Source: an uncultured Bacteroidota bacterium (GTDB lineage: Bacteria; Bacteroidota; Bacteroidia; Bacteroidales; GWA2-32-17). Taken from it: DNA of 64,000 nucleotides. This document shows positions 19,382 to 41,971 of the stretch, piece after piece (position 1 is the first letter of the stretch; each line of letters opens with the position of its first letter). The stretch is taken from assembly GCA_903872185.1 (NCBI GenBank), contig CAIQJL010000086.1:4989-68988 (forward strand), read 5' to 3'. Position numbers and translations under genes: made by a program. Under the pieces are notes generated by a model, which worked only from the letters and a program-made list of their open reading frames with translations, did not search any database and was not told the DNA's origin.

Positions 19382-21019
19382 TTATTCTTCTTCTATATTT
19401 TTCTTTTTGTGTTTTGTATAATAAACCGAAATCGCTATAGAGATTATAGCCAAAAACATAAAAGCAACAATTCTATAAATAATTCCTACAATAGCTAGAT
19501 CTACAATAAAAAGATAAATGGCTGCTGCTATCATTGTAAATATTGCCATCCATCTGTATTTAATATTATGTATTAAAAGGCTTAATAAAAAATAAACAAC
19601 TGCTGCAATAGACCATGATAATGTAACGTATTGCCCAGGAACAGCTTTATATAAAGCATAAAGCATAGTAAAGAATCCAAAAATTAAATAAATATTTCTT
19701 ATCAAATCTGTTTTAATATCAAGCCTTTTACTTTGCAAATTAATAACACGAGCAGTTATAATTGCAATTAATGCAAATGAAAAATTGATTGAATGAATTG
19801 ATTCAGCTGAAAAATAATAACCCGCCATTAAAAGTGCAAAAAGAAATAAATTCATAAACACAATAATCTTTGACCTGAACCAAATTGCCATTGAGACTAC
19901 AAGTAAACTCTGAATAGACAACAATAAATACGAAAGTGGCAAACCATAAACCCCATAAATAGCTGTGCTTATTGAGATAAAACCATATAACGCATAAAAA
20001 GCAGGAGTATATTTTAATTCGGAGTATTTCTTTAGAAAAACTGAAAAAAGCAAACAAATTGCAGAAATTGGCAAGAAAATCCAGACATAATTCATCATGT
20101 AGAAAGTAACAACATACATAGTAAGAATTGCGGTAAAAAATAAGCCATTAAGAATAATTGTAATAAATACAAATGCTTCAGGCATTGATTCTTTTTGTTT
20201 AAATAATGTAATCATTGAGAAGGCAGATACACAAACAAAAAGATAAGCAATACTATAATGATCAGATAGCCCGGCAACTAATTCCTTATCAACATTTACA
20301 TGAACAATGTACCAAACAATGAATGAAATATATGAAAAAAATTGAGCTACAACAATAAGTTTCCACCAACTATTCTTATGTAAAAGATAAACAGAAAAAA
20401 TAACTGCTAAAGTAACAACAGAAAGCATAAAATGAGTAGTATTACTAATATTTGCAGTTACTAAAAGCAAGATAAAACCAATAGATGCAAGAAATTCTGA
20501 ACTTTTTTTATTAGCAAAATAAAATTGAATAATACTTATAATCACTAATAAAATCAAAGGAACAGCCGGTTCTGAAATAAGAGGGAAGTCGGTAAAAAAA
20601 TGAAGTCGTAAAGTGACATAAAATAGAAGAATATAACTAATGATATTAAACTTAGAGGATAGCCCTGGTATAGATTTCTTAATATAATGTGCAATCACAA
20701 AAACTAATATTGATGCAACATATCCAAAAACAGTAGAAAATAGTGGCTGACCTGAACTCTGAATATATTGTGTTACAAAAGCAAGTCCGAACAAAAGAAC
20801 AATACTTCCAAGCCAACCTAAACCAAACTCACCAATTCTTGATTCCATTGCCGATTCTTTTTCTGAATCTGAAGGTTGCTGTTTTAACTCATCATTGGTA
20901 AGTTCTCTATCGTAGGCCTTATATTCTTCTTCAGTAACCTTTCTTACGCCTAACAATGACTCTAGCTGACCAACTCTTCGCTCTAAATAGTCTAGTTTTT
21001 CAATAATCTTTTCATCCAT
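19382..21019 (-). CDS. Polytopic membrane protein with N-terminal coiled-coil (DUF2339-like)
   Basis: 545 aa. Soluble N terminus MDEKIIEKLDYLERRVGQLESLLG, then about 14 hydrophobic helices. The family assignment is from memory only. Confidence 0.5.
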   Translation of the reverse strand: MDEKIIEKLDYLERRVGQLESLLGVRKVTEEEYKAYDRELTNDELKQQPSDSEKESAMESRIGEFGLGWLGSIVLLFGLAFVTQYIQSSGQPLFSTVFGYVASILVFVIAHYIKKSIPGLSSKFNIISYILLFYVTLRLHFFTDFPLISEPAVPLILLVIISIIQFYFANKKSSEFLASIGFILLLVTANISNTTHFMLSVVTLAVIFSVYLLHKNSWWKLIVVAQFFSYISFIVWYIVHVNVDKELVAGLSDHYSIAYLFVCVSAFSMITLFKQKESMPEAFVFITIILNGLFFTAILTMYVVTFYMMNYVWIFLPISAICLLFSVFLKKYSELKYTPAFYALYGFISISTAIYGVYGLPLSYLLLSIQSLLVVSMAIWFRSKIIVFMNLFLFALLMAGYYFSAESIHSINFSFALIAIITARVINLQSKRLDIKTDLIRNIYLIFGFFTMLYALYKAVPGQYVTLSWSIAAVVYFLLSLLIHNIKYRWMAIFTMIAAAIYLFIVDLAIVGIIYRIVAFMFLAIISIAISVYYTKHKKKNIEEE

Positions 21020-21079: not shown

Positions 21080-21112
21080 AAATAAAAAAAGGTTTCATTT
21101 TACTGAAACCTT
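21080..21112 (-). terminator. Rho-independent terminator after the NrfD-like gene
   Basis: Stem aaaggtttca/tgaaaccttt (21087-21112) followed on the minus strand by a T7 run. Confidence 0.75.
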
Positions 21113-21149
21113 TTACATTACTACTTATATAATTTTGTAAATAATTAAA

Positions 21150-22346
21150 TTATTCATGCTCTATATGAGGAGCTTTCTTCCAAGGTGGTAATAACCATAA
21201 AAGAATAGTTAGAATAATTAGTGGAACAACTAACCAAATCATTCCCCCTAAAAACCCTTCTTTACCAATCATATCTAGCTTAAAGTCTGTAAATCCGTAA
21301 AAACTTTTTGAAAATAATTGACCGCCAATAACAACATTCCATCTCATAAAGAAAATCCCCACAAGAACACAAAGTGATAATATGAAATATACAAATTTAC
21401 GAATGTTCTCTTTTGGTTTTAAAAATTGGAATGTTCCTAGAGTTAATAATGGGATTAAGGTACCTATCAATCCTTGCATTATGAAGAAAGTAAAAAACAA
21501 TTTACCATGAACCAATAAATTCAATATATCAAATGATTCTTCAGCTACATAAATTCTATGAATCTGATCAAGCCCTTCTAAAACAAAATCAATAAGGAGA
21601 ATATAAAACAAATACTTACCAATAGCATCAAGACAAATCATGTCTAGTTTTTGTTTTCTAATTATACTTACTGCCATATAAATAAACATTACAAGAGCAA
21701 TACCAGAAACCATAGCAGAAAACAAGAAAATAACAGGCATCATTACAGTTGACCACCATGGGTTCGCTTTTACAGATCCGAAGATAAAGCCAACATATCC
21801 ATGTAAAATAAAAGCCGAAGGAATACCCACTACTGTGATAAAATAACCTAGTTTGTTGTCTGTAATTCTTGATTTATTAGAAACATCTTTAATTCCAAGT
21901 GTTAGGATTTTATATATTATTGATTTGAAACCTGGATTTTCTTTTGACCAGATTGTCATATCATATCTATAATCAAACCAAATTTCTAATAATAGTACAA
22001 CCATTAAGTACCACAAATACACAAAGCCAAAAATGGCCATTGCAGAAGTTAAATGTGGTGTTGTCATAATTTCGTAAAAACGAAATGGTTTTCCTAAGTG
22101 GAAAATAAGTGGCATTGTTGCCACAAGCATAAAAGAAAATGCAGTTAAAAGTGATAACTCATAAGTAGGTTTTAAAGCCTTAATATTAAATACCCTGTTA
22201 AGAGATGCTAAAATAAATGCTCCAGCAACTAATCCGGTAATATAAGGGTAAAGAACAATAAGTACAGACCAGTTTAATTCTATCTCGTTAGGATAGCAGT
22301 AGCCGTCCATCTTGGACATTGCTTCATATAATGATTGAAATTCCAT
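21150..22346 (-). CDS. NrfD/PsrC-family integral membrane quinone-interacting subunit
   Basis: 398 aa, 8-10 TM helices. Immediately downstream (1-nt gap) of the Tat-signal FeS subunit, the classical NrfC-NrfD / PsrB-PsrC / DsrO-DsrP arrangement. Confidence 0.75.
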   Translation of the reverse strand: MEFQSLYEAMSKMDGYCYPNEIELNWSVLIVLYPYITGLVAGAFILASLNRVFNIKALKPTYELSLLTAFSFMLVATMPLIFHLGKPFRFYEIMTTPHLTSAMAIFGFVYLWYLMVVLLLEIWFDYRYDMTIWSKENPGFKSIIYKILTLGIKDVSNKSRITDNKLGYFITVVGIPSAFILHGYVGFIFGSVKANPWWSTVMMPVIFLFSAMVSGIALVMFIYMAVSIIRKQKLDMICLDAIGKYLFYILLIDFVLEGLDQIHRIYVAEESFDILNLLVHGKLFFTFFIMQGLIGTLIPLLTLGTFQFLKPKENIRKFVYFILSLCVLVGIFFMRWNVVIGGQLFSKSFYGFTDFKLDMIGKEGFLGGMIWLVVPLIILTILLWLLPPWKKAPHIEHE

Positions 22347-22347
22347 A

Positions 22348-23112
22348 TTAATGTACCTCCTGACTTAATGCGTTATAATAAAGTTTTGAGCCGGTGTTTA
22401 AATTTGGTTTTAAAGCACCCACAGTATGATTTTTTATAAATTTAACCATTTCGCTTTTTGGATCACGAAGGTTCCCATATAGCCTTGCTCCAGTTGGACA
22501 AACCATCATACATGCTGGATCCATTCCTTTTTTTAATCTATGGTAGCAAAGTGTACATTTATCAACTGTACCTAAATCTGGTTTAATGTACCTGCATCCA
22601 TAAGGGCAAGCCTGAACGCAGTAACGACAGCCAACACAATAATTTGGATCAACAAGCACTACACCATCAGGAGAAACAAATGTTGCTCCTACCGGACAAA
22701 CCTGAGTACAAGGTGATTTAGAACAATGATTGCACATTTTAGGAACAAAAAAAGTTTTAAATATCTCTGATTCAGGAACTGGTTGTTTATAACCATCAAT
22801 GCCACCATTTGGTGATTGAACTTTTACTTCTCCGCTATTGGTAATGGTATATTGTTCAACCCAGCTTCTAAAGAAAAACGGTTCCTTTGGAACATCATTT
22901 TCAGCTTTACAAGCACGTGCACAACTAGCACAACCAATGCATTTTTCGATATCAAGACCTATACCATACCAAGTATCATCGCTCTTTGATTTTTCGGTTG
23001 ATTGAGCAGCTTTTAAAGGACTTAGCAATGATGCAAAGAGAACTCCTCCAGCTATTACTCCAGTTTTCTTAAAAAACTCTCTTCTTGAAAAGTCTTTATT
23101 TTCTTTTACCAT
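22348..23112 (-). CDS. Tat-exported 4Fe-4S ferredoxin-type subunit (NrfC/PsrB/DsrO-like)
   Basis: 254 aa. Twin-arginine signal SRREFFKKTGVIAGG. Four Cys clusters (CIGCASCARAC, CNHCSKSPCTQVCP, CVGCRYCVQACP, CTLC...CMMVCP). Confidence 0.85.
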   Translation of the reverse strand: MVKENKDFSRREFFKKTGVIAGGVLFASLLSPLKAAQSTEKSKSDDTWYGIGLDIEKCIGCASCARACKAENDVPKEPFFFRSWVEQYTITNSGEVKVQSPNGGIDGYKQPVPESEIFKTFFVPKMCNHCSKSPCTQVCPVGATFVSPDGVVLVDPNYCVGCRYCVQACPYGCRYIKPDLGTVDKCTLCYHRLKKGMDPACMMVCPTGARLYGNLRDPKSEMVKFIKNHTVGALKPNLNTGSKLYYNALSQEVH

Positions 23113-23552
23113 AAAACAGGATTATGAGAATTATGACAACTTATACATTCATCTTCTTTATTATGCTCATTCATATCAATTTGTTTGATAACTTTTGCAC
23201 GGGCAGGATTCTTACTATGACACCTTCCGCAGAATTCACGAGCATGTTCTTTTACAATATTTGTCTTTTGAGGATCGTCAACATGTTTGTAGCCTGGCCC
23301 ATGACAGGTCTGACAATTTATTGATTTATGCACACTACTATCTCTAACAGCTGCAATTGAATCATGACATGTTATACATGTTTCATTCATGTTAACATAC
23401 TTAATAGGTCTGTCTTCATTTTCTTTTAAAGCTGCACCCCTATAATGACCATATTCTCCAAAAGTGGCAGGTCTTAAAAAATGACGAGCAACCAAAAATA
23501 ATGCAATAAAGACCGCAAACGCAATCAGAAGTCTTTTTACTTGAACTGGCAT
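23106..23552 (-). CDS. Membrane-anchored tetraheme cytochrome c
   Basis: 148 aa. N-terminal TM helix and four CXXCH motifs (CITCH, CQTCH, CGRCH, CISCH). Overlaps the FeS gene by 7 nt. Confidence 0.85.
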   Translation of the reverse strand: MPVQVKRLLIAFAVFIALFLVARHFLRPATFGEYGHYRGAALKENEDRPIKYVNMNETCITCHDSIAAVRDSSVHKSINCQTCHGPGYKHVDDPQKTNIVKEHAREFCGRCHSKNPARAKVIKQIDMNEHNKEDECISCHNSHNPVLW

Positions 23553-23634
23553 ATATTTATTTATTTATATTTTTAATCAATCCCACTATTATAAATCTAT
23601 ACAAAAAACTCAATATGTTATTAAACACTTTTTG

Positions 23635-23642
23635 CAAACTTA
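23635..23642 (-). promoter_or_regulatory. Candidate -7 box TAAGTTTG for the tetraheme-FeS-NrfD operon
   Basis: The plus strand reads caaactta, 83 nt upstream of the ATG at 23552. Confidence 0.3.
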
Positions 23643-23728
23643 AATGTTTTTTTGCCTCAATTTAGTTAAAATCTAAAGTATTTTCATTAAATCATATTAT
23701 TTTAGAAGCATTATAAATAGACGTAAAT

Positions 23729-23759
23729 GGAAAAGATTGGATTTACTCCAATCTTTTCC
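23729..23759 (-). terminator. Hairpin terminator after the ImcH-like gene
   Basis: Perfect 12-bp stem ggaaaagattgg/ccaatcttttcc with a 7-nt loop, 38 nt downstream of the stop. The T tract is weak. Confidence 0.55.
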
Positions 23760-23797
23760 ATAAAAAATTTATAATTAATATTTTTTAAAAATACTAA

Positions 23798-25300
23798 CTA
23801 AAACATCTCGAAATGACAATTAGAACAGTTAGTTGTTTTCCAATCTTCTCCAATATCAACTGGATGAATAAATGGCATTGTTCCATTTATAGGAGAATAT
23901 TTAATAGAATCTCTCTGACCTTGACCAATTAATGTATGGCATAAATTACAATCCTTAGAAATAACTTTGCCATCAGATGATTTATGTTTATCGTCATGAC
24001 AACGGAAACAACCTTTATTTTCAAAATGTCCAATATTTCTTGGATATTTCTTATAGCTTACCCTCATGTAAGGAAATGTGTTATATGAAAATTCTTCTTG
24101 AATTGCAGTTACTGCCTTTTTAATTTCCTTCTCATATTTAGAAAATAAAGCGGGGTATCCTTCTTTATAATATTTAATCATCTGATCATTAATTCCTGCA
24201 AACGCAGAATCTTTTGTAGTATAAAGATCGTTTGTAGCTTCCATTGCAGCACTTTTAAGATAAGGAACTTTTGTGTCAATTCTATTTCCAGCAAACAATT
24301 CATTTACATAATGAGGAGGCGAAAAGTATTCATGTGATGGGCGATTATGACAATCCATACAATCCATCATTCGTTTTTCAGTAGTAGCAACTTCCTTAAC
24401 AGTAGGATGAATTGATGTGTCTTCTTCTACAAAAACAATCTCTTTTCCTGTTGACTTATTAAAATATCTTACCCAAGGAATTGTTTGGCGCTTTTCATCA
24501 GCTTGATATGTTATCTCAACATCGTTATTAATATGCCAATGTATTCCCTCGGTATTGCCTAATGCAGAATGATCGGCTCCAATTCTCATTTTCATAATAA
24601 CATCCCATTCGGTATTTGCAGAATCGGCTAAATAGTATTTTTGACTTCTAATTTTATTTGTATAGAATTTTTGAGGCCAATGGCATTTTTCACAAGTTTC
24701 ACGAGCTGGGCGTAAATTAGCTATAGGTGTTTCAATATTTCTTGGATAAGTTCCCAATATATATTTGTAAACCTGTCGTAAACCAGACATTTTAGATTTT
24801 ACATAAAAATCAGCTCCTTCACCAACATGACATTCTGCACATTTAACGCGAGCATGAGGTGAATGTTGATATGCAACATATTCAGGTTCCATCACTTTAT
24901 GACAAAGTTTTCCACAAAACTCTACCGATTCAGTATAATGAAATCCTTTATAACTACCTATTACAGTTGCAATAACAAAAAATATTGTAACAACAGTAAA
25001 AATAAGAATTGCATTTCGTGTTTGTGGATCTCTAAGATTAATGACTAATAATTTTTCGTCAGAAACAGGCAATCCTTTTTTAAGTTTTCTTTTTTTAAGA
25101 TACATCCCAGTAGGTATTAGGATTAATCCAAAAACAAGAAATCCTGGTGTAACTAAATACGCAAAAAGATCAAAGTAAACATTGTCTGTTTGAAAGAAAT
25201 TAATCTGTATAACAAAGAAAGTAATTGCAAAAGCTGCAATAATTGCAATAATAGATCCTAAATAGGAAATATAATTGTAATAAGTACGTGGTAGTTTCAT
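23798..25300 (-). CDS. Inner-membrane heptaheme cytochrome c with NapC/NirT-like region (ImcH-like)
   Basis: 500 aa with three N-terminal TM helices. NapC/NirT-like FCGKLCHKVMEPEYVAYQHSPHARVKCAECH. Seven heme motifs: CGKLCH (CX3CH), CAECH, CEKCH, CMDCH, CFRCH, CNLCH, CSNCH. Confidence 0.75.
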   Translation of the reverse strand: MKLPRTYYNYISYLGSIIAIIAAFAITFFVIQINFFQTDNVYFDLFAYLVTPGFLVFGLILIPTGMYLKKRKLKKGLPVSDEKLLVINLRDPQTRNAILIFTVVTIFFVIATVIGSYKGFHYTESVEFCGKLCHKVMEPEYVAYQHSPHARVKCAECHVGEGADFYVKSKMSGLRQVYKYILGTYPRNIETPIANLRPARETCEKCHWPQKFYTNKIRSQKYYLADSANTEWDVIMKMRIGADHSALGNTEGIHWHINNDVEITYQADEKRQTIPWVRYFNKSTGKEIVFVEEDTSIHPTVKEVATTEKRMMDCMDCHNRPSHEYFSPPHYVNELFAGNRIDTKVPYLKSAAMEATNDLYTTKDSAFAGINDQMIKYYKEGYPALFSKYEKEIKKAVTAIQEEFSYNTFPYMRVSYKKYPRNIGHFENKGCFRCHDDKHKSSDGKVISKDCNLCHTLIGQGQRDSIKYSPINGTMPFIHPVDIGEDWKTTNCSNCHFEMF

Positions 25301-25575
25301 TTTAAAACAATTAAATTATTTTTTTTATGTTGTAAAAATAACTAAAGACTTGCTTAAATCAAGCAATTTTTAAAAATGTTTAGTAATTTAGACGCTTTCT
25401 ATGTTTTAGAGCAGAGTTGTTAAACATCATTATTCATGTTTAATAATAGTTTACAGTACTTAAAAGACATCTAATTTTACAAGAAACAATATATAGTATG
25501 ATTATTAATAACCATATGTTAATTTAACTATATATAAATCAATTGTTATTTAACACATTACGTAAATATTTAATT

Positions 25576-27966
25576 ATGAAATTTATTAAATTTATTAAAG
25601 CAAATTCATTATTCTTTCTGATACTTTTTTGTATTGAAGCAAGCTCTCAAGAGATTGTTTGTTTAGATTGTCACGAGAATTTGGTTTCAAATTCGGTACA
25701 TAACAAGGTTATAAAATGTGGTGATTGTCATCGTGACATTACAACCACAGAACATGGTGCCGGCTCTGCAAAACCGGTTAATTGCGCTAATTGCCATGCA
25801 GCTTTAGATAAACTTATGAATAATGATGTTCATAGAAATATAATGAAGCTTGAAGAAAAAGATGCACCAAATTGCAAAAAATGCCATGGTACTCATAATA
25901 TAAAATCTCCTTCAAAAATTGAAAATAAGCAAAAAGAATATTGTAGTAAATGTCATAAAAATGAAGTTCTAAAATCTAATTATCATTATAGCAATGCCAA
26001 CAATGAAAATTGCAGCAAATGCCATAATGAAAAAATGCATAAAGAGAAATTAGCAAAATCTGTTCACAGCAAATTGAATTGCTCTAATTGTCACAGTTAT
26101 GTTGTAAATAATATTGGCAATCATAAAAAAGCTCCAAAAGACGGAGTTTTGGCAGATTGTTATTTATGTCATAGCGCTATTGCAGCTGAACATAAAGAAA
26201 GCATACACGGTTTGTCAATTTCAGAAGGGATTAATGAAGCAGCGCAATGCTGGGACTGTCATGGTTCACACGCAATTGATTCTATATCGAATAAAAACAG
26301 TTTAGTATTTCAAACAAATTTGGTAACAACATGTGGCAAATGTCATGATAATCCTGCATTTACAAAGAAACACTTATTTGCGATTAAAACTCCTGGTATA
26401 ATGTACTCGAAAAGCGTACATGGAAAAATAGTTGCTGATGGAAAAAATGCTGCAACATGTGTAACTTGTCATGGCAAACATGATATAAAAAACAGAATTC
26501 AACCAGGTTCTAAAATAGCAAGTATAAATATTCCTAATACATGTGAAGAATGCCATAAAGAAATTACTTTAGAATATAAACAATCTATACACTGGATTGC
26601 TGTTAAAAAAGGAATTAGAGAATCTCCATCTTGTAACGACTGCCATAGTGAACATAATATTCACGAAATTAATACTCCAGAAAAGAGAGAAGAAATTAAA
26701 AAAATTCAATCTCAGACATGTTTACAGTGTCATCAGAATTTAATGCTTTCTGAGAGATATGGAATGTCGGGTAATAGCGCAGGAAATTACGAAGACAGCT
26801 ATCATGGCTTGGCATCAGCTCATGGCGAAGATAAAGCAGCTTTATGTGTAGATTGTCATGGAGTACATAAAATATTACCAAAATCACACCCTGAATCTTC
26901 TATTAACAAAAACAATATTACTTCTACCTGTAAGAAATGTCACGCTAAAGCAACTGATGTTTTTTCAAACAGTTATTCGCATACAACGCAAGTTAACTCT
27001 GCAAAAAACATTGAGGACATTGTTACTTCGGTATATTTTTGGTTAATTGTAGTGGTTGTAGGATGGATGTTTGGGCATAATCTTTTAATATTAATTCACG
27101 AGCTAAGAAAACGTTATAAAAAATCTAAAAACGAAATTAGAATTCCTCGATTTACAACAAATGAATTAGTACAACATACTGTATTACTAGCTTCATTTAT
27201 AATATTAGCTATATCTGGTTTTCAATTAAAATATCCTGATAGTGCTTTTGGAAAGGCATTATATGCATTAGGTATGGATGAAAATATTCGTCAATGGGTT
27301 CATAGAATTTCTGCAATAGTAATGATTATACTTTCTGTTTACCATGCTATTTATTTAATTATTACAGCAAGAGGTAGAGATGTGCTAAAAGGATTATTCC
27401 CAAATTTCAGCGATGTATCGCAAGCTATGGGTAATATGTTATTTTATTTACATTTAAAAAAGAAACAACCAGAATTCGACAATTATAATTACATGGAAAA
27501 ACTCGAATACTGGGCATTAATATGGGGAACATTAGTAATGGGTGTTACTGGACTTGTACTTTGGTTCCCAACACTTGGTGGCGATTGGGCTCCTATTTGG
27601 TTTATTAAAGTAAGTGAGATTATACATTTTTACGAAGCAATACTTGCTACCTTGGCTATTGTTATTTGGCATTGGTTCTTTGTAATATTCCACCCAAAAG
27701 AATATCCTTTAAATTTCATTTGTATTGATGGTGAAATTACTATTCATCATTTTAAAGAAGAACATAAATTAAAATTCTACAAAGTAATTATTGAGTGGCT
27801 TGAAGTACAAAAAGGTATTCGTACCGCGAAAAAAATGAACCACTATACAAAGTTATTTATTAAAGCTGTTGAAAAAGGTGGTGTTACAATGGAAAGTCTA
27901 GTAAGTTCTGAGCTTAATAAAGACGAACATTTAATGGCATTAGCTGAACAACAAGGTTTAATATAA
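25576..27966 (+). CDS. 16-heme cytochrome c fused to a C-terminal FdnI/HydC-type cytochrome b membrane domain (CbcL-like)
   Basis: The ORF track starts at TTG 25543; ATG 25576 gives the signal peptide MKFIKFIKANSLFFLILFCIEASSQ. 16 CXXCH motifs by my count. The C-terminal ~300 aa have 4-5 TM helices with conserved His (LVQHTVLL, WVHRISAIV..YHAIYL, IIHFYEA...WHWFFVIFHP). Confidence 0.8.
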   Translation: MKFIKFIKANSLFFLILFCIEASSQEIVCLDCHENLVSNSVHNKVIKCGDCHRDITTTEHGAGSAKPVNCANCHAALDKLMNNDVHRNIMKLEEKDAPNCKKCHGTHNIKSPSKIENKQKEYCSKCHKNEVLKSNYHYSNANNENCSKCHNEKMHKEKLAKSVHSKLNCSNCHSYVVNNIGNHKKAPKDGVLADCYLCHSAIAAEHKESIHGLSISEGINEAAQCWDCHGSHAIDSISNKNSLVFQTNLVTTCGKCHDNPAFTKKHLFAIKTPGIMYSKSVHGKIVADGKNAATCVTCHGKHDIKNRIQPGSKIASINIPNTCEECHKEITLEYKQSIHWIAVKKGIRESPSCNDCHSEHNIHEINTPEKREEIKKIQSQTCLQCHQNLMLSERYGMSGNSAGNYEDSYHGLASAHGEDKAALCVDCHGVHKILPKSHPESSINKNNITSTCKKCHAKATDVFSNSYSHTTQVNSAKNIEDIVTSVYFWLIVVVVGWMFGHNLLILIHELRKRYKKSKNEIRIPRFTTNELVQHTVLLASFIILAISGFQLKYPDSAFGKALYALGMDENIRQWVHRISAIVMIILSVYHAIYLIITARGRDVLKGLFPNFSDVSQAMGNMLFYLHLKKKQPEFDNYNYMEKLEYWALIWGTLVMGVTGLVLWFPTLGGDWAPIWFIKVSEIIHFYEAILATLAIVIWHWFFVIFHPKEYPLNFICIDGEITIHHFKEEHKLKFYKVIIEWLEVQKGIRTAKKMNHYTKLFIKAVEKGGVTMESLVSSELNKDEHLMALAEQQGLI

Positions 27967-27989
27967 CATTTAGAATACAATCTCTTTTT

Positions 27990-28013
27990 ATGTCAGGTCT
28001 TTCGACCTGACAT
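27990..28013 (+). terminator. Terminator hairpin ATGTCAGGTC-TTTC-GACCTGACAT after the 16-heme gene (copy 1 of a repeated hairpin)
   Basis: 10-bp perfect stem 24 nt after the stop, followed by a T-rich tract. The identical 24-mer occurs at 57264-57287 on the other strand. Confidence 0.7.
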
Positions 28014-28072
28014 TTATTATTATTTTTAGTTAGATCTGTATTAAAAGAAGCTTATAAATTGAACGATACTAA

Positions 28073-28105
28073 ATAAAAAACGCATCAATTATTAAACTGA
28101 TGCGT
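28073..28105 (-). terminator. Rho-independent terminator after the 218-aa ORF
   Basis: Stem acgcatca/tgatgcgt (28080-28105) followed on the minus strand by TTTTTTAT. Confidence 0.7.
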
Positions 28106-28128
28106 TTTATATTTAAAAAAAGAATTAT

Positions 28129-28785
28129 TTATTCTTTTGAAGCATCATTTACTATATCATTATCAAATTCAATAATTTTATACATATAGGTTGGAAAGTC
28201 AATATCAAGCTTTCTTACATCTGCAAAATAGTCATCGCCTGCATATAATTCAATTTTCTTTTTCTCTTTGTTAACATTAAATGCTAATTGACCTGAAAAA
28301 AAATGCGAATAATTAAAATAATATAAATTGTATCCTTCAGGTTGCGCCTTTACTTCATTTTTCTTATCAAATAACTGAGTACCTGTTTTTATTAAAATAT
28401 TTTTTGCAGTACCACTATCATCATCTACATCTATTTTTGTAGTACAATCATATAATTTAAAAGTTTTAGGTTTTTGTGCAATATGTTTTGGATGATTTTT
28501 ATTTACCCACCTTAAACAGATATCTGAGAATTGTGAATAAAAAGAACTAATTTCAATGTCCATTTCAAAGCCTAATGGCTTCTCTACATATTTTTGCCAT
28601 CCTTTATCTCCTATATTGTATGGAAATCCAACTAATAAATGAGTTATTATAACGTCTTTGTGCGAATTAAGCTGATACACAAATGACTTGAAATCATTTG
28701 CGAAATTCTCCATTTTTGTACCTGGAATACCTTTAATATTTTGCTGTTCGGCAAATATTGTTTGTAAATTTTTTTCGGTTATCAT
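28129..28785 (-). CDS. Hypothetical cytoplasmic protein (no recognisable domain)
   Basis: 218-aa ORF with no signal peptide, TM helix or Cys motifs. It has its own terminator and lies between the two CbcL-like genes. Confidence 0.55.
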   Translation of the reverse strand: MITEKNLQTIFAEQQNIKGIPGTKMENFANDFKSFVYQLNSHKDVIITHLLVGFPYNIGDKGWQKYVEKPLGFEMDIEISSFYSQFSDICLRWVNKNHPKHIAQKPKTFKLYDCTTKIDVDDDSGTAKNILIKTGTQLFDKKNEVKAQPEGYNLYYFNYSHFFSGQLAFNVNKEKKKIELYAGDDYFADVRKLDIDFPTYMYKIIEFDNDIVNDASKE

Positions 28786-28880
28786 AATACATTTTTAAGT
28801 TAAATATTTAATTAAGCAATTTAAAATAATTTAATAATATTAAATGCATTTTACCTTTTACGTAAAAAAATGCTTAATAA

Positions 28881-28911
28881 GAAAAGCTGTATAAATTTTA
28901 TACAGCTTTTC
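28881..28911 (-). terminator. Hairpin terminator after the 19-heme gene
   Basis: 13-bp perfect stem gaaaagctgtata/tatacagcttttc with a 5-nt loop, 20 nt downstream of the stop at 28931. Confidence 0.6.
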
Positions 28912-28930
28912 TTTATTTCTAATTAAGTTT

Positions 28931-31714
28931 CTAGTATGTACCTGCTATTAAAGAATAAATAATAAGCCCAACTAATACTATTCCGGTAAATAAGAATATG
29001 TAACCAAATACTTTTACTGTTTTAATCCAATTTTGCGAGAATGCTTTTTTAACAATTACTGTATCTAGTTTTCCAGCTTTTTCTAATTCTTCATATTCTT
29101 TTGGTCTATCGGCTTTATACTCTTCTAATGGAACATGTCCGGTAAATATTACAGTATCCATTGGGAAAGCCTCAGGGCGTAAGTGAGTGTTAAAAAAGTG
29201 AATTGTAAAAATAAATCCAACAGCCAATAAAGCTTCATCGCTATGTATTATTTGAGCTACATTAATTAACCAGCCAGGGAAGAATTTTGTAAAATATTCG
29301 GGTAGCCATAACACTAGACCAGAGAAACCAATAACAGCAACTCCCCAGAATACCGCCATGTAATCAAATTTTTCCCAATATGTCCAACGACCATAATAAG
29401 GACGTGGTCCAGCTCCTAAGAACCATTTAACAGTACCAATAGCATCTTTTAAATCTTGTTTGTTAAACATTAAAGAATCTTTGCCAAAAATGAATGACAT
29501 AATTTTTGTCTTATTTCTGATTTTCATTCTTATTAATGAGAATACATGGAAAATAAAGTATCCAAAAGTAATAACTGCTGCAAAACGATGTATATTACCT
29601 GCCACATGAACGCCACCAATTAACTTTGCCATATTAAATGCCCAAGGCATATGAGCAAATTTAAGCATCATACCTGTAAGTGCTAACAATAAGAAACTAA
29701 CAATTACAAAAACATGGGTTATTCTCTGGCTCTTTTTAAATCTACGGAAATAAACAGCTTCACCTGTTGGCATTTTATGATGCTTCTTTTTTCTTGCTTC
29801 CATAATAGACCTTGGTATCCATAACAACGTGTGAATTCCAAAAATTCCAAATACACTTAGAAGAAGAGTAGTCATAATCCAAAATGTATAAAACAATACA
29901 TTATTATCGTTGTGGGTAGCATGAGTTAAATATCCGGTAAACTCAACATTTGCATTTGGATGGCATTGCTTACAAGTTTTAACAATATTTTTTTGCCCTA
30001 CCATCGACTCTGGATTCGAAATTTTTAAAATTTTATGAGCACCATGACAGTCAGAACATCTTGCAGCTTTTAAATAACCAAGGGTATAAGCTTTGCCATG
30101 ATAAGTTTCCATATAAGTCTCAGCAAGTTTCTTATGACAACTACCACACTGCATAGTGATCTCATTTAAGAATTTATCTTTATCTATTTCGGTAATTGTA
30201 TGAGCAGTATGGCAACTTGCACAAGTAGGGAATTTTTTACCACCATTGTCTGCTGTTATTGCATGATCACTTGTCATATAATCATCATAAATACTCTTAT
30301 GACATTTCGAGCATGTTTTAGGAACATTTAATGGATTTACTGTAGAATTTAAATCAGATTCTTTTAGTATGTTATGTGAGGTATGACAATCGGTACAAAC
30401 TGCACTTGCAAGCAATCCTTTTTCTTTTAATCCTTTTCCATGAACACTTGAAGAATAATCACTAAAAGCATCTATTTCTTTTAAATGTGTATTAATAACT
30501 GCTTTTCCATTTTTGTTGTGGCATTTTCCACAAAGCTCAGGTATAGAACCTCTATAAGTAGGTGACGTATCATCATATCTTGTTTTTACTTTATGTGTTC
30601 CATGACAATCTGTACAATATGGAGCATTTGGCTGTTTTTTAAAGTAAGCCTGACCATGTCCACTTGTTATATATATATTTGAAACCTGCTCGTGGCAACC
30701 AGAGCAATCAACTTTTTTATTAGTAATACAAGGGCGTTCTTTTTTATTATCTATTGTTACCTCAGAATGACACTTTGTACAAGGAATATTTTTATGTGCA
30801 GAATTTACTAAATCGTCTTTGTTAATTTTAAGTGATACTTTTTGGTTATTTACCATCTTATATGTATCAGCATTCTCATGACATTTTAAACAAAGCTGAT
30901 TTGAAACAGTTTCTTCAATTTTCTTAATTTTAACAATGTGCGATGGGTGACAGTCACTACATGCAGGAACAGACCCAGCTTGCTTTTCCCATAATTCTCT
31001 TTTAATAACCTTTGTATGTACTTCTTCAATTCTTGCATGGCATTTCATACATGTACTCGCAATCTTATTAGGCGAGATAGAAGAATTTGGACTTGTATGT
31101 GGCAATATTAAGTGATTACCATGACAGTCGTTACAAGTTGCTGAAACAATTAACCCGCTTTTAAATAAACCTTTACCATGGATACTTTCACTATAATGTT
31201 CTAAAATATTACTTTGAGGAATGTTATACAATCTTGCAACAGGAGATCCTTCTTTATGGCATTTACCACAAAGAATTGGAATATTCATTTTATAAGTTAA
31301 CGATTTTGGATTTGTGTGATTTAATATTCCATGTCCACCATGGCATTCTTTACAATCTGGAGCATAAGGAGCATTTAATTTTAAAGCTTGGCCATGTATA
31401 CCTGCAAAAAATTGCATTTGTGCATTTTTATGGCAACCACCACATTCAACTGGTTTTAAATTTTCGGGATGAGGAAATTCTGCTACTGCAGCATCTTTAT
31501 GACAAGAAGCGCAAAGAACACTTTTATGAACTGATTTATTCAGGATATTCTTATCGGCATATAGCGAAATAGTTTTTCCCTGTCTAACTTTTGATAATCC
31601 ATGATCTTCATGGCACATCAAACAATCATCATTTGTTTGGGAAAATAAACTACTAGTTATTAAAACTATACTAAAAACAACTAATAATAATTTTTGACTA
31701 ATTTGATTTAACAT
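28931..31714 (-). CDS. 19-heme cytochrome c fused to a C-terminal FdnI/HydC-type cytochrome b membrane domain (CbcL-like paralog)
   Basis: 927 aa with signal peptide and 19 CXXCH motifs by my count. The C-terminal membrane domain has conserved His ([31 protein letters not shown]...IHFFNTHL), the same architecture as 25576..27966. Confidence 0.8.
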
Positions 31715-31757
31715 TTTATATAATTTTTATCTTAATATTTACCTTTTTACAACTATA

Positions 31758-31765
31758 CAAATGTA
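31758..31765 (-). promoter_or_regulatory. -7 box TACATTTG upstream of the 19-heme gene, within a shared 15-mer
   Basis: The plus strand reads caaatgta, 43 nt upstream of the ATG at 31714. It is embedded in atacaaatgtataat (31755-31769), which recurs at 34159-34173. Confidence 0.4.
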
Positions 31766-32172
31766 TAATCGCTTTATTTATTAAAAAATGTTATACAACA
31801 TTGTTGATATTAAATAACAGTTTTTATTAAACATGTTTATTTATCCCCTAAAACATTTACACGATTTAAACTATTCACTATATCTGATCAAAACATTAGC
31901 ACAACTCATTTTTACCAATTTGAACAATTAAATAACATGTGAAATATAAAAGTATTATTAAACACAGTTTTTTTAAATTACATTTTTATTTCACAACTAT
32001 TGAGAGACAGTTGCAAAACTCCTTTTCGTCATTACTAACTCGTCCCTTGTCATAATTAACTAAGTGAAGAAATCTATAAATTATTGCAAATAAGATTGCT
32101 TCGCAATAGCTGTGACTTATGTTTCGGGGAATTTTGGAACGATCTTATTACTTTAAAAGATGTTATAAAATA

Positions 32173-32205
32173 AAAAATCCGATTTAATAATTAAATCGGA
32201 TTTTT
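32173..32205 (-). terminator. Bidirectional-looking hairpin terminator after the beta-barrel gene
   Basis: 15-bp perfect stem aaaaatccgatttaa/ttaaatcggattttt with a 3-nt loop, 20 nt downstream of the stop at 32226. Confidence 0.7.
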
Positions 32206-32225
32206 GAAGTAAGAACAAATAAGTA

Positions 32226-33116
32226 TTAGAACCTAACAGTAATATTAAAACCAATTAATAAACTATTAAAATCCCTATGATTATATAAATAATTTTTTTG
32301 TGCAATTATATTGTTATAAGTAGTTGCAAATAACTGAAATGCATGAGTACCACCATTTTTCTCAAAGCCAAAAGCAAAACCTGGCTTAGAAGCTCCCGGC
32401 ACATCTTCACCATCAGCATTTTTTGGATAATCAAATGATTCAAGTGGTGAAACATAATTAAATTCTGCCATAAATGATATCTCATTCCAGATTTTAAACC
32501 TACCACCTATGCTAGCACCAATAGCCTGATTAGAATATAAAGAATCAACTTTATTGAAATGTAAAAAATATGGTGCAATTTCCATTGATAATCTCTCACT
32601 AAATTTACGTGCAATAATAAGTTGGTGAAAATAAGATAGGCGACTTGCAAAATTATAGTTATCACCAAAATACGCTTTTTCTCTACCACAAATAACTACA
32701 TTTCCATAATAAGTAAGGAAGAAAGGCATTCCATTTTCTTTTTGTTGAAGTATAGAATATTTCAATAAAAATTCCTGCATTTTATTGAATTTTTCGGTAC
32801 CAAATCCAATCATTAATTTATCGGTAATTCCATAATTAATTCCAAGTCTTGTGTTAGCAGGTCCGTATACACCAAATAAATCGCTTAATTTTTTAATTGT
32901 ACCTATTCTGTGATGAATAATAAATTCTTTTGATTTTTTGGTTGGCTGGTTTATAGTTTGTGTTTCGATAAGCATAGAACAAGCAAATGCATCTGCAACA
33001 GGAGTTTTTGCTACTGAAGGTGTTTCTACTGCTGGTGTTTCTACTTCTTGTGAAACAGCAAAATTAATGCTGATTATCAGCACTAGAGATAAGACAAAAG
33101 CTATTTTTTTTAACAT
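32226..33116 (-). CDS. Small outer-membrane beta-barrel protein
   Basis: 296 aa. Signal peptide MLKKIAFVLSLVLIISINFAVSQ, alternating amphipathic strands, and a C-terminal aromatic ...LLIGFNITVRF. Lies 33 nt downstream of the lipoprotein cytochrome gene. Confidence 0.6.
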   Translation of the reverse strand: MLKKIAFVLSLVLIISINFAVSQEVETPAVETPSVAKTPVADAFACSMLIETQTINQPTKKSKEFIIHHRIGTIKKLSDLFGVYGPANTRLGINYGITDKLMIGFGTEKFNKMQEFLLKYSILQQKENGMPFFLTYYGNVVICGREKAYFGDNYNFASRLSYFHQLIIARKFSERLSMEIAPYFLHFNKVDSLYSNQAIGASIGGRFKIWNEISFMAEFNYVSPLESFDYPKNADGEDVPGASKPGFAFGFEKNGGTHAFQLFATTYNNIIAQKNYLYNHRDFNSLLIGFNITVRF

Positions 33117-33149
33117 AATAATGTATTTATTTATTGTTTGTTTTTTATT

Positions 33150-34079
33150 TTACCAGCACTTTTTACCAACTCCACAATGAGCTGCATTACCATTACCAGA
33201 ATATCTTGACCCATTTGCCATTGTTCCGCCAGCGCTAATGCTTAAAGGTTTAAAGAAAGTTTGGCCGTCAACATGATAATTAGTTCCGTAAGTTCCTTGT
33301 AAGTTGGAATTATTAATAATATTAACGCTATCATTAGCAGCAGCTACGGTACTTGTATTATGACACCAAAAACACTGAACTCCATCCCATTGAGGAGTAG
33401 TATAAGGTGATGCAGAAAAATCTTTATTATTTGTCATATGAAAAAGTAATTGATGCTGACCTGATTCTGGATAATTACTTTGTTTCATAGAGTTTGGTTT
33501 TGAAACAAGAAAAGGTGAAGTCATGTTTCCTAAACCATTGTGACAAGAAGTACATTCAGTTACCTTACCATTATCCCATCTTGGTGTGGTAGCATAAACA
33601 GCAATCTGCTTGCCAACAGTAGCGCTCCAATTCATTGATCCAACAGCATTTGGATATCCTGGATCTTGTCCGCGATATGCTGTACGACCATTACTATGAC
33701 AATATACATTTGAACAAGTTTTATTCTTAGAATCCCAAGTTGGAGAATTACTGTCATTTCCGTTTCTGGTAATCAAACTAGTTAAATTAAATGTAACATT
33801 TTTAACACCATTCATGTGTGTTGCAGTTTCATATCCATGTCCAAAATGGCAAGTGTTACAGCTATATGCATATAAACCTTTAGTGTGCTTAGCATGTGCA
33901 TTAGAAGAATGCTCTGCAAAAGTACCATTATGACAATTTTCACATAACTCAGGCAAAACAGTAGAACCTGGTGCGGGAGTATTTTTAAAAGTGATTTTCT
34001 GTTTTTCACACGAGGCTAAAAAAATTACACTACTTATTAGTAACGTAAACAAAATAGTCCTTAAATTTTTCACATTCAT
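33150..34079 (-). CDS. Lipoprotein multiheme cytochrome c (5 heme motifs including one CX4CH)
   Basis: The ORF track starts at 34127; ATG 34079 gives MNVKNLRTILFTLLISSVIFLASC, a lipobox signal peptide. Motifs: CENCH, CNTCH, CSNVYCH (CX4CH, codons 33696-33716), CTSCH, CFWCH. Confidence 0.75.
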   Translation of the reverse strand: MNVKNLRTILFTLLISSVIFLASCEKQKITFKNTPAPGSTVLPELCENCHNGTFAEHSSNAHAKHTKGLYAYSCNTCHFGHGYETATHMNGVKNVTFNLTSLITRNGNDSNSPTWDSKNKTCSNVYCHSNGRTAYRGQDPGYPNAVGSMNWSATVGKQIAVYATTPRWDNGKVTECTSCHNGLGNMTSPFLVSKPNSMKQSNYPESGQHQLLFHMTNNKDFSASPYTTPQWDGVQCFWCHNTSTVAAANDSVNIINNSNLQGTYGTNYHVDGQTFFKPLSISAGGTMANGSRYSGNGNAAHCGVGKKCW

Positions 34080-34161
34080 TACTTTATATTTAGTTAAATT
34101 AAAATTAAAGCTCTTAGAAATACTCAAATATGATTTAAAACATAAATCATGTTTAATAATA

Positions 34162-34269: not shown

Positions 34270-34584
34270 TTAATTGCCGATTAGTTTTACAACTAATAAT
34301 TCTAATAAATTTTCAGAATTATTTTTCCAACCTCTTAACGAATTTTGGTCGACAAAAACAGTAGAATTTGCTAAAACTTGAATACTCTCGCTTTCCACTG
34401 TCAAAACACCTTTACCAAAAACCACATAAAAAATTACATCAAAGGGATTTTTGTGTAATCCAATTTCTTCACCCGGTTTTAGAATAAGCTTTATTAACTC
34501 TACTTTATTATTTGAAAACATTTTTTTCGCCTCTATATCAAAACGAACTTGGCTTGCGTTTTCATAAGTAGTTATATTTATCAT
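34270..34584 (-). CDS. Cupin-domain protein
   Basis: 104 aa, small single-domain beta-barrel pattern (LKPGEEIGLHKNP...VVFGKG). The start overlaps the stop of the upstream small ORF (ATGA). Confidence 0.65.
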   Translation of the reverse strand: MINITTYENASQVRFDIEAKKMFSNNKVELIKLILKPGEEIGLHKNPFDVIFYVVFGKGVLTVESESIQVLANSTVFVDQNSLRGWKNNSENLLELLVVKLIGN

Positions 34585-34760
34585 TTAGTATATTTATTTA
34601 TTATTTCTTGAATTACTGGCCTACAACCGCCACAAATCATACCTGCTCCAGTTTTTTCACAGACCAAATCAATGTCTTTTGTTTTAAATTTTATAATTGC
34701 ATCAATTATCTGCTGCTTATTTATCTCAGCACAAGTACAAATAATTTCATTAGTAGGCAT
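34581..34760 (-). CDS. BFD-like [2Fe-2S]-binding domain protein (59 aa, missed by the ORF track)
   Basis: My minus-strand translation is MPTNEIICTCAEINKQQIIDAIIKFKTKDIDLVCEKTGAGMICGGCRPVIQEIINKYTK. The CxC...C..GxxCGxC pattern is typical of bacterioferritin-associated-ferredoxin-like domains. It is packed tightly between the two cupin genes. Confidence 0.7.
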   Translation of the reverse strand: MPTNEIICTCAEINKQQIIDAIIKFKTKDIDLVCEKTGAGMICGGCRPVIQEIINKYTK

Positions 34761-34761
34761 A

Positions 34762-35094
34762 TTACTCTCCTTTTATCATTATCAATAGCATTTTAAATCT
34801 TTCGTGGGCAAAAACAGAATGAGGAATATTTGCTGGCATAATTATAAACTGTCCCCTAATAAGATTATATGGCTTTTTATCTATTGATATTTCTGCATTA
34901 CCATCAATAATTTGAATTATAGCATCAAATGGTGCAGAATGTTCGCTTAAACCCTGACCTTTATCAAAAGCAAATAAAGATAAATTGCCCGTCGTTTTTT
35001 TTCTAATAGTTTTACTAACAACTGAGCCATTTGAATATTCAACACTTTCTGACAAATCAAAAATTATTGAATTTTGAAAACTGTTATTTTCCAT
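34762..35094 (-). CDS. Cupin-domain protein
   Basis: 110 aa (GLSEHSAPFDAIIQIIDGNAEISI...MPANIPHSV), a cupin barrel motif. Confidence 0.65.
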   Translation of the reverse strand: MENNSFQNSIIFDLSESVEYSNGSVVSKTIRKKTTGNLSLFAFDKGQGLSEHSAPFDAIIQIIDGNAEISIDKKPYNLIRGQFIIMPANIPHSVFAHERFKMLLIMIKGE

Positions 35095-35173
35095 ATTTTT
35101 AAAATTTTAAAAAAAGCTATATTATATTAGTATAGCTTTTTAAAATTACAACATTTAAACTCAAATAACAAAT

Positions 35174-36025: not shown

Positions 36026-36063
36026 GCAGTTATAATTTATAAGAATTTAAGTATTTTAATACT

Positions 36064-36071
36064 CAAATGTA
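36064..36071 (-). promoter_or_regulatory. -7 box TACATTTG upstream of the FeS-cupin operon
   Basis: The plus strand reads caaatgta, 39 nt upstream of the ATG at 36025. Confidence 0.4.
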
Positions 36072-36190
36072 AGGTCAATATTTTGAATCTCCAAATATTT
36101 TTAATGTTTTTTAACATTGCTAATAAAAATCTCATTTTACAATGAACTAAAAATAATGGTATAATTAAAAGTGAATATTTTAAATATTAA

Positions 36191-36874: not shown

Positions 36875-36888
36875 GAAAGCTGAAAAGC

Positions 36889-38355: not shown

Positions 38356-38706
38356 ATGAATAGTGAATATTTAATACTGTTTTTCCTGCTGGGGGTCATA
38401 CTTGTAGGTGGAGCTATTTTGTTCTCCATGTTTACTGCCCCAACCTCAAAAAATTCGGCAAAAGCGGAACCATACGAATGCGGTATTCCGGTAAAATCTG
38501 ACGCCTGGATACAATTTAATGTTGGCTATTATTTATTTGCCATCATTTATTTAGTTTTTGATGTTGAAACTGTATTTATTTTCCCTTGGGGTGTAGTTAT
38601 GCGCGATATGGGAATAACAGCATTTATAGAGATATTAATATTCTTCTTTATACTTGTATTAGGACTTTTATATGCTTGGAAGAAAGGAGCTTTAAAATGG
38701 GTGTAA
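38356..38706 (+). CDS. nuoA: NADH-quinone oxidoreductase subunit A
   Basis: 116 aa, 3 TM, PYECG motif. First gene of the nuo operon. Confidence 0.9.
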
Positions 38707-39251: not shown

Positions 39252-39263
39252 TCCGAATATTTT

Positions 39264-39722: not shown

Positions 39723-39734
39723 TAGATTGAATAT

Positions 39735-40859: not shown

Positions 40860-40870
40860 TAATAATCAGT

Positions 40871-41962: not shown

Positions 41963-41971
41963 TTAGAAGGT

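Follow-up and report, generated by a model that had tools for sequence, protein, structure and literature searches.

Exchangeable Geobacter-type inner-membrane modules around a putative outer-membrane redox pair, a lipoprotein cytochrome and a DUF5777 barrel, in an uncultured Bacteroidota bacterium

In Geobacter sulfurreducens, the inner-membrane cytochrome ImcH is needed for respiration of acceptors above about -0.1 V. Another Geobacter module, Cbc4, consists of the membrane-anchored tetraheme cytochrome CbcS, CbcT with four [4Fe-4S] clusters and the membrane subunit CbcU (bioRxiv 10.1101/2025.04.14.648717). Homologues of ImcH and 19-heme homologues of CbcL were catalogued in Bacteroidetes and Ignavibacteria in 2018 (Zhong & Shi, PMC6295460), and the same survey reports no mtrAB or mtoAB genes next to imcH. 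At the outer membrane, the barrels of the described systems have 26 strands in MtrB and 16 in Cyc2 (PMC8406198). Here we describe an island of multiheme cytochrome genes on a contig of an uncultured Bacteroidota metagenome-assembled genome (MAG). The stretch analysed, 64,000 nt in all, is called the window, and the open reading frames (ORFs) of the island are lettered A to I, with an additional ORF, Z. The island plausibly encodes a system resembling extracellular electron transfer (EET): inner-membrane modules of Geobacter type (D, E, G and C-B-A) are grouped around a lipoprotein cytochrome (I) and a small outer-membrane barrel (H). We hold with moderate confidence that it is a modular respiratory island that would link the menaquinone pool to the outer membrane via c-type hemes.

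We tallied the motifs CXXCH, CX3CH and CX4CH in the translated ORFs of the window. Five ORFs (C, D, E, G and I; 23106-34127) carry 51 heme c motifs, distributed as 4+7+16+19+5, of which 49 are CXXCH, one is CX3CH (in D) and one is CX4CH (in I). The cytochrome cluster is real, and the recount is identical to that of an earlier note made from the letters alone, hereafter the sequence-only reading. All 49 CXXCH of the 64-kb window fall within a stretch of ~11 kb. The remaining 47 ORFs (16,673 aa) have zero CXXCH, and their Cys and His content predicts 0.006 such motifs in the five cytochromes (2,707 aa) against the 49 observed. No CXXCK, the NrfA-type motif, occurs in the five cytochrome ORFs by motif count, as had been claimed. 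The Tat-signal (twin-arginine translocation) 4Fe-4S subunit, the NrfD subunit, the two FdnI/HydC-type domains and the small beta-barrel listed in that reading were each recovered by motif, Pfam or AlphaFold2. ORFs A-D and F-I lie on the minus strand and E on the opposite, plus strand.

D (23798-25300) has the predicted architecture of ImcH, a heptaheme inner-membrane cytochrome with three transmembrane (TM) helices and a NapC/NirT-like region. Its TM helices are placed at residues 13-31, 45-63 and 97-115, compared with 13-35, 45-67 and 100-122 in GSU3259, the ImcH of G. sulfurreducens. Its seven motifs, 6 CXXCH and 1 CX3CH (CGKLCH, the first motif), stand at residues 129, 154, 203, 314, 431, 451 and 492, compared with 132, 156, 205, 311, 428, 448 and 486 in GSU3259 (Zhong & Shi 2018, PMC6295460). 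Compared in this way, by published positions, D equals ImcH in length, in its three TM helices, in its NapC/NirT-like segment and, nearly, in its heme positions, and it also matches the Ignavibacteria ImcH homologues of ~496-500 aa in the same survey. Residues 94-185 match the Pfam family Cytochrom_NNT (E 1e-10), and a search of PDB chains matched D to NrfH (2j7a_C, E 5e-6).

E (25543-27966, with a likely start at ATG 25576) and G (28931-31714, monocistronic) are predicted fusions of the CbcL type. Each has a signal peptide, a long multiheme domain with 16 CXXCH in E and 19 CXXCH in G, and a C-terminal HydC/FdnI-type membrane domain that begins ~25-30 residues past the last heme. In a scan with Pfam Ni_hydr_CYTB, E scored 63.8 bits and G 27.9 bits, the latter just below the cut-off of 30.1; the FdnI-like TIGR01583 matched ORF E at E 2e-13 and ORF G at E 2e-10. 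The four His of both cytochrome b domains align with those of stand-alone CbcB-like cytochromes b. The last four inter-heme gaps are 30-28-45-28 in G and 30-29-42-28 in E, compared with 29-28-43-28 in CbcL (PMC6295460). Across all 19 motifs, the spacing in G is that of the 19-heme homologues in Table S2 of that survey, which gives the CbcL/MtoC/MtrH family a heme range of 3-23, 19-heme members included. PKP08298.1 (HGW-Bacteroidetes-4, 913 aa) and OGU58019.1 (Ignavibacteria, 952 aa) share this spacing with G, together with a C-terminal TM block. E and G thus have the same plan as CbcL (GSU0274), a periplasmic multiheme domain followed by a HydC/FdnI-type four-His membrane domain, yet CbcL has 9 hemes and the larger numbers here come through tandem duplication of a six-heme module. 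This module of ~180 aa is present in tandem copies in G (35% identity, z = 54) and in two copies in E. With 16 and 19 hemes instead of nine, E and G would be family members and not strict CbcL orthologues.

The third kind of module is encoded by C, B and A, whose genes overlap or abut. C (23106-23552), the first gene of the operon, is predicted to be a CbcS-like tetraheme cytochrome c with 4 CXXCH and one N-terminal TM helix as its membrane anchor. B (22348-23112) is a predicted Tat-exported protein with four [4Fe-4S] clusters, of the NrfC/PsrB/DsrO/CbcT type, with the twin-arginine motif SRREFFK, a match to Pfam Fer4_11 and PsrB (2vpw_B, E 1.6e-43) as its best PDB match. A (21150-22346) is a CbcU-like integral membrane subunit of the quinone-interacting NrfD family (Pfam NrfD PF03916, E 5e-34), with about 9-10 hydrophobic segments. 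Against the NCBIfam equivalogs for Nrf, Dsr, Ttr, HmcB/C and QrcC, every score of A and B was below cut-off (TtrB 195 vs 416, DsrO 178 vs 200, NrfC 147 vs 378, NrfD 57 vs 348), which sets the trio apart from all of those named systems. In subunit composition and gene order it matches Cbc4/CbcSTU (GSU0068-0070), compared by description, and we class C-B-A as a putative Cbc4-type, NrfD-based module. The sequence-only reading had claimed one ImcH-like protein, two much larger CbcL-like proteins and one NrfCD-like module. D agrees with the first in its TM helices and its seven motifs at almost the positions of GSU3259, and E and G with the second in their domain matches, aligned His and CbcL-like spacing, while the last is more exactly described by the composition and gene order of Cbc4.

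The outer-membrane pair is formed by I and H. The longest ORF of I runs from a TTG start at 34127, and the deposited protein from an ATG at 34079 (33150-34079); the latter is an exact 309-aa protein (P0121) in a family of 49 proteins obtained from 5.8 billion clusters searched. I is a predicted pentaheme c-type lipoprotein with 4 CXXCH and 1 CX4CH (CSNVYCH), a lipobox FLASC whose Cys begins the mature protein, and matches to Pfam GSu_C4xC__C2xCH and TIGR01904, a Geobacter-type CxxxxCH/CxxCH domain. Besides the five motif His, seven His are invariant in the family, enough for five bis-His hemes, so the hemes of I are probably all of the bis-His, electron-transfer type and not an open catalytic heme. 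All 15 of the 15 aligned family members end in H-C-G-x(3-4)-C-W (33150-33185 here), which is not a heme c motif. H (32226-33116) begins 33 nt downstream of I and is predicted to be an outer-membrane beta-barrel of the DUF5777 family, with a signal peptide and Phe as the last residue; it matches Pfam DUF5777 (PF19089) over the full model length with 206.7 bits (cut-off 23.1, E 4e-61). Its AlphaFold2 model has 12 strands and a mean pLDDT (predicted local distance difference test) of 81, and Foldseek returned generic small barrels only (NanC at TMt 0.67, Tsx and OmpG). About 20 invariant, mostly polar residues line the modelled lumen, H69, R70, R90, K119, K171, E252, H258 and R295 included. H, I and A gave no meaningful match in a sequence search against PDB chains.

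The DUF5777 alignment was scanned against one genome per species (185,579 species), which returned 249 species-level relatives. In the loci of the best 80 of these 249, ORFs were called and motifs counted in each. All 80 are Bacteroidota or Chlorobiota MAGs, in line with the Bacteroidota setting proposed from the sequence. A c-type cytochrome gene directly adjoins DUF5777 in 78 of the 80 loci, compared with a background of ~5% at offsets -4 to -9, and a gene with at least three hemes lies within three genes of DUF5777 in 70 of them. As these loci are the closest to the query, the 78/80 holds for the subfamily of at least 38% identity, not for all 1,865 DUF5777 clusters found by a profile search of 1.84 billion representatives. 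The usual cassette consists of CcsBA, a Crp/Fnr regulator, a ~360-aa hexaheme lipoprotein, a ~120-aa monoheme lipoprotein and DUF5777, and in most of the 80 loci the genes after DUF5777 encode quinone-coupled modules. Three kinds of gene content follow: a 7-heme CbcA-like protein with a 205-aa Ni_hydr_CYTB protein and a class-I cytochrome c; NrfC-NrfD with a ~290-aa protein of no known family; or a 19-heme CbcL-type gene. The first kind has the CbcBA layout of the cbcBA clusters noted in Bacteroidetes in 2021 by Joshi et al. In the clade of this window, the pentaheme I replaces the monoheme lipoprotein, and both begin C-E-(Y/K)-x-x-I after the lipidated Cys. P0284 (L088:6257-7480, 407 aa) is a natural fusion of a class-I cytochrome c and a DUF5777 barrel.

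Other features of these loci were also recorded. Two genes upstream of DUF5777, the hexaheme lipoproteins of four loci (L030:8433-9536, L029:8528-9541, L027:7724-8845 and L044:6505-7650) have a collagen-like Gly-X-Y run directly after the lipidated Cys, e.g. CEGPAGSAGTDGIDGIDGIDGSDGT, with a weak Pfam Collagen match; the run suggests a stalked, possibly trimeric, multiheme lipoprotein. The protein that follows NrfC-NrfD in most cassettes of that kind has ~280-300 aa, a signal peptide and no Pfam family (L029:12940-13782, L089:10200-11057, L090:10775-11683), and the trio is sometimes tandemly duplicated. A 1,968-aa protein with 26 CXXCH, MtrC/MtrF-like domains and a C-terminal right-handed beta-helix adjoins the cassette in L016 (3751-9657) and L017 (12061-17967), whose assemblies are labelled Bacteroidetes and Chlorobiota, respectively. 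P0284 is preceded by a Reeler-domain protein with a type IX secretion system (T9SS) sorting domain, and P0202 (615 aa) has two tandem DUF5777 barrels. A minority of loci (e.g. L006:11104-15634) have genes for HmuY-like (heme-binding) T9SS proteins and for a TonB-dependent receptor after DUF5777, which hints at a link to heme or iron acquisition.

The island itself is divided into at least six transcription units, [I-H], [G], [F], [E], [D] and [C-B-A], with strong terminator-like hairpins after H, G, F, E and A. The hairpin at 32173-32205 (minus strand), with a 15-bp stem and a T tract, closes the I-H operon; those after G, E and A lie at 28879-28913, 27990-28013 and 21087-21114, respectively. 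An Rfam scan of the window returned four tRNAs only, and the 511-bp gap between H and G was empty. Single TAnnTTTG matches occur upstream of I, G (31758-31765), C and Z. With 89 matches in the window against 122 expected, the motif is not enriched, and the host signal that the sequence-only reading saw in TAnnTTTG promoters was not reproduced.

Close relatives carry a mosaic of these units. The closest genome, L008, has 81-86% nucleotide identity and is collinear from I to D save for a replaced F region; past D it jumps to QueE, without C-B-A-Z (4.5 kb). L010 has I-H followed directly by D-C-B-A-Z, without G-F-E (6.9 kb), L011 has I-H-G only and L009 I-H only; homology to L009 and L010 breaks off at 32225. 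The more distant L092 (46-58% identity) has the order I-I'-H-ImcH-multiheme-NrfC-NrfD, and I adjoins DUF5777 in L008-L013 and in L092. Only I-H and the upstream ferredoxin and cupin genes are constant across the close relatives. A single conserved operon is rejected by the terminators and indels, and conservation of the gene set in relatives fails as a fixed set, with G-F-E or C-B-A-Z absent, while the theme is conserved. In this comparison the I-H operon is the conserved core, and the inner-membrane modules are exchanged around it.

The search for a catalytic enzyme combined Pfam and NCBIfam scans of all ORFs at 10-48 kb and of the other large ORFs. No periplasmic catalytic subunit (molybdopterin/MopB, NrfA, HAO or other) was found in the scanned ORFs of the window, whose sole molybdenum (Mo) enzyme is a xanthine-dehydrogenase-family protein (50209-52500). 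Among the large non-cytochrome neighbours of DUF5777 in 73 related loci, no catalytic reductase recurs; the recurrent ones are NrfD, CcsBA, TonB-dependent receptors with HmuY-like proteins, cytoplasmic hydrogenase/NuoF-like proteins and regulators. The absence of a catalytic terminal reductase, as had been claimed from the sequence, was thus borne out for the window, where the 16.7-38 kb around the island hold no MopB-family subunit and no NrfA with CXXCK, and none recurs in the related loci. A missed catalytic subunit is rejected on the same scope, for the window by the domain scans and for the recurrent neighbours in the 73 loci.

The sequences thus present four quinone-interacting modules of three Geobacter-type kinds, namely D, E and G, and C-B-A. 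In the mechanism we propose, menaquinol would be oxidised by whichever of D, E, G or C-B-A fits the potential of the acceptor. The 10-heme MtrA spans ~8 nm; scaled from it, the long heme chains of E and G would reach ~15 nm if linear and could take electrons across the periplasm without soluble carriers. I, on the inner face of the outer membrane beside H, would be the last heme station. The narrow barrel of H has no room for a cytochrome, so the final step would most likely be Cyc2-like: a small redox-active species, be it iron in ionic or chelated form or some other acceptor or shuttle that can diffuse, would reach the heme through the conserved polar lumen of H and meet it at the barrel mouth. 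On the model of H, a heme wire through the membrane appears less likely than such pore access. The presence of an ImcH-type quinol oxidase, together with the lack of an encoded terminal reductase, makes a net outward flow probable, which would amount to anaerobic respiration of an extracellular or poorly permeant acceptor. The outer-membrane step, the extracellular electron sink and the direction of flow are what we infer, and the I-H pair may move electrons at the outer membrane of these bacteria.

Several observations weigh against this proposal. Each module is transcribed on its own and the set is not conserved together, which leaves room for more than one pathway. H, as a 12-strand barrel, resembles no proven electron conduit. 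In Bacteroidota, the signal for lipoprotein export reads C-X-K-(D/E)2-X or S-D-D-D-D after the lipidated Cys (PMC5080379). The mature N-terminus of I, C-E-K-Q-K-I (relatives have C-E-K-E-K, C-A-K-E-K and C-G-K-D-K), does not fit this signal, a T9SS domain is also absent, and no protein of the window is predicted to be surface-located. I is thus predicted to face the periplasm; since the signal was defined in Bacteroidota families other than that of the host, this argues against surface exposure of I without excluding it. The outer-membrane pair of the sequence-only reading therefore stands as a lipoprotein with a barrel, but not as a classical porin-cytochrome. The model of I, built from a 15-sequence alignment, has a mean pLDDT of 38 and is unusable. 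P0284 is the one fusion among the 150 family representatives listed. All carriers found are uncultured: the top 120 homologues of a Prolixibacteraceae-labelled DUF5777, together with two multi-Mb contigs, are all metagenomic, and no cultured carrier was found among them. Finally, the direction of flow is not fixed, as CbcL-family proteins (CbcL/MtoC/MtrH homologues) are also known from Fe(II) oxidisers (PMC6295460).

Three other explanations share part of this evidence. H could be a specific channel, e.g. for an anion, with a heme of I or of E/G as the reductase, so that a soluble substrate is respired in the periplasm and nothing leaves the cell. The fold of H, a 12-strand specific channel like NanC and Tsx, would suit this, as would the many invariant Arg, Lys, His and Asn of its lumen and the lack of a surface-export signal in I; B is closest to the PsrB, TtrB and ArrB types, and octaheme and pentaheme cytochromes such as Otr, MccA and NrfA can themselves be reductases. 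Yet no CXXCK, CX15CH, HAO-type or other catalytic signature is present, the invariant His suffice for five bis-His hemes in I, and a linked catalytic partner, molybdopterin-type or other, is absent from the window and does not recur in the 73 related loci. ImcH, CbcL and Cbc4, with CbcBA in relatives, moreover form the Geobacter set for extracellular acceptors, and we consider soluble-substrate respiration unlikely. A somewhat smaller chance is given to electron uptake, in which the cytochrome-barrel pair would work like a Cyc2 split in two and take electrons from extracellular Fe(II) or some other reduced donor. Periplasmic cytochromes would receive them and pass them on either to an oxidase or N-oxide reductase or, uphill, to the quinone pool by way of the CbcL-type proteins, whose homologues in Fe(II) oxidisers speak for this reading. 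P0284 has the layout of Cyc2, with a class-I monoheme cytochrome c N-terminal to the barrel, and Fe2+ has been proposed to enter the Cyc2 pore (PMC8406198). The last gene in most cassettes encodes a class-I cytochrome c similar to the donors of cbb3 oxidases, but the window has no class-I cytochrome c, and no oxidase stands beside the island. The presence of an ImcH-type protein also argues against uptake, since that family is reported from Fe(III) reducers only (PMC6295460), as do the 12 strands of DUF5777 against 16, with no detectable sequence relation to Cyc2, and the origin of the relatives from anoxic groundwater and lakes, judged by MAG names only.

The remaining alternative, improbable in our view, is that the island is a recombination hot spot with no single pathway, and that I-H is non-respiratory and serves assimilatory iron or heme acquisition or redox sensing. 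The mosaic content in close relatives with breaks at terminators fits this, and so does the company of DUF5777 in other loci: a TonB-dependent receptor in 8 loci and an HmuY-like protein in 6, besides Reeler and EB_dh-type proteins. An Rrf2 regulator and MntP conserved upstream would also agree with it. However, no TonB or HmuY genes lie near the island in the window, and the concentration of all 49 CXXCH motifs in one 11-kb stretch speaks against it, as do the quinone-coupled modules found after DUF5777 in most of the 80 loci and the recurrence of the order I-H-ImcH-tetraheme-NrfC-NrfD at 46-58% identity (L010, L092). An outward-directed respiratory island remains our preferred reading.

Among the neighbouring genes, F (28129-28785) is a 218-aa ORF without signal peptide, TM helix or family (no Pfam or NCBIfam match), and L008 has a different, 276-aa ORF in its place; on these grounds F is treated as a passenger, probably outside the system. 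The 545-aa product of Z (19382-21019, minus strand) is a polytopic membrane protein that matches no Pfam or NCBIfam family and has a coiled-coil-like segment at its N-terminus. Among the relatives Z comes and goes with C-B-A, both being present in L010 and both absent in L008, and its membership in the system is uncertain. The flanks hold an alpha-2-macroglobulin, an OmpA/TPR protein, QueE, two cupins, a ferredoxin-like protein, Rrf2, MntP and the nuo operon. Upstream of I-H, at 34270-37287, are two small cupins, a 283-aa ferredoxin-like protein and an Rrf2-family regulator, with MntP beyond. The cupin and ferredoxin genes are kept in L009, L010 and L011, the Rrf2 gene was seen in L010 only, and these upstream genes could be an iron- or redox-responsive regulatory context of I-H. 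The complex I operon (38356-48226) has 11 subunits, nuoA, B, C, D, H, I, J, K, L, M and N, and genes for NuoE/F/G were not found at it; it starts 4.2 kb from the island, matching the 4 kb given earlier. The Mo enzyme beyond it (48750-52500) is a three-subunit hydroxylase of the xanthine-dehydrogenase/aldehyde-oxidase family, unrelated to the island. Its large subunit (50209-52500) has 763 aa and MoCoBD_1/2 domains, and the two upstream ORFs taken as its other subunits (48750-50202) lay outside the scan. The alpha-2-macroglobulin (10381-16560) is a bacterial protein of 2,059 aa with MG2, A2M and bMG10 domains, and at the edge of the window (1-1564) stands tuf (EF-Tu), cut by the window end and preceded by four tRNA genes at 1225-1564.

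D, E/G and C-B-A appear to enlarge families that are already known. The sequence-only reading called such pathways essentially uncharacterised in Bacteroidota, which was only half right. Literature searches on Bacteroidota EET systems found catalogue-level mentions only, but one survey already lists ImcH/CbcL homologues in 2018 (PMC6295460), and cbcBA clusters were noted in 2021. In the searched passages and supplementary tables of that survey, no mention was found of a barrel or lipoprotein cytochrome neighbouring the ImcH/CbcL homologues, and a literature search returned no paper that mentions DUF5777 or PF19089. Thus, no earlier description was found of DUF5777 barrels and lipoprotein cytochromes as a constant core of such clusters, or of the near-universal linkage of DUF5777 to cytochromes across Bacteroidota. 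More tentatively, and with the balance somewhat against it, we propose that DUF5777 barrels with adjacent lipoprotein cytochromes could be an unrecognised class of outer-membrane redox modules specific to Bacteroidota/Chlorobiota and unrelated to Mtr/Pcc or Cyc2. With at least 249 species-level genomes that carry it, the class would connect quinone modules of the CbcL, CbcBA, ImcH and NrfCD types with iron or with other acceptors or donors outside the cell. The island would then be a variant in which a pentaheme partner and periplasm-spanning 16-/19-heme CbcL fusions replace the monoheme partner and CbcBA.

Anoxic sediments, aquifers, lakes and bioelectrochemical reactors all harbour abundant Bacteroidota. 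Surveys that search only for MtrB/OmbB/Cyc2-type porins would miss Bacteroidota with DUF5777 modules, for which the near-obligate pairing of DUF5777, cytochrome and quinone module offers a concrete and cheap marker. The two-gene unit, I-H or monoheme-DUF5777, is expressible and testable. If the proposal is true, it would add a third architectural solution for outer-membrane electron exchange and revise the estimates of taxa in iron and humic redox cycling; if not, the island is still a clear case of Geobacter-type inner-membrane modules shuffled as cassettes in another phylum.

Compared with known systems, the pair shares with MtrCAB, PioAB/MtoAB and the Geobacter Pcc/Ext conduits a barrel gene adjoining multiheme genes and a lipoprotein cytochrome partner. 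Those porin-cytochrome conduits, however, use barrels of ~20-26 strands that sheathe a deca- or octaheme wire, and with the 12 predicted strands of H the last step cannot be Mtr-like. With Cyc2 (PMC8406198), I-H shares a c-type cytochrome and a small outer-membrane barrel unable to enclose it, with chemistry proposed at or in the pore. Cyc2 is a monoheme cytochrome fused to a 16-strand porin, whereas I-H is two genes, a pentaheme lipoprotein and a barrel of 12 predicted strands; the partner of DUF5777 is a monoheme lipoprotein in most relatives, and a fusion exists in P0284. I-H is coupled to modules of quinol oxidase type, and no sequence relation to Cyc2 was detected. With NrfBCD, PsrBC, DsrJOP, Qrc and ACIII, the island shares an NrfD subunit (A) and a four-cluster subunit (B, closest to PsrB), but lacks their catalytic or MopB-like subunit. 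Of the Geobacter pathway, the PpcA-type soluble carriers, the OmbB/OmaB/OmcB-type conduit and the nanowire cytochromes are not encoded near the island, and the inner-membrane modules that occupy separate gene clusters in Geobacter are here gathered in one island.

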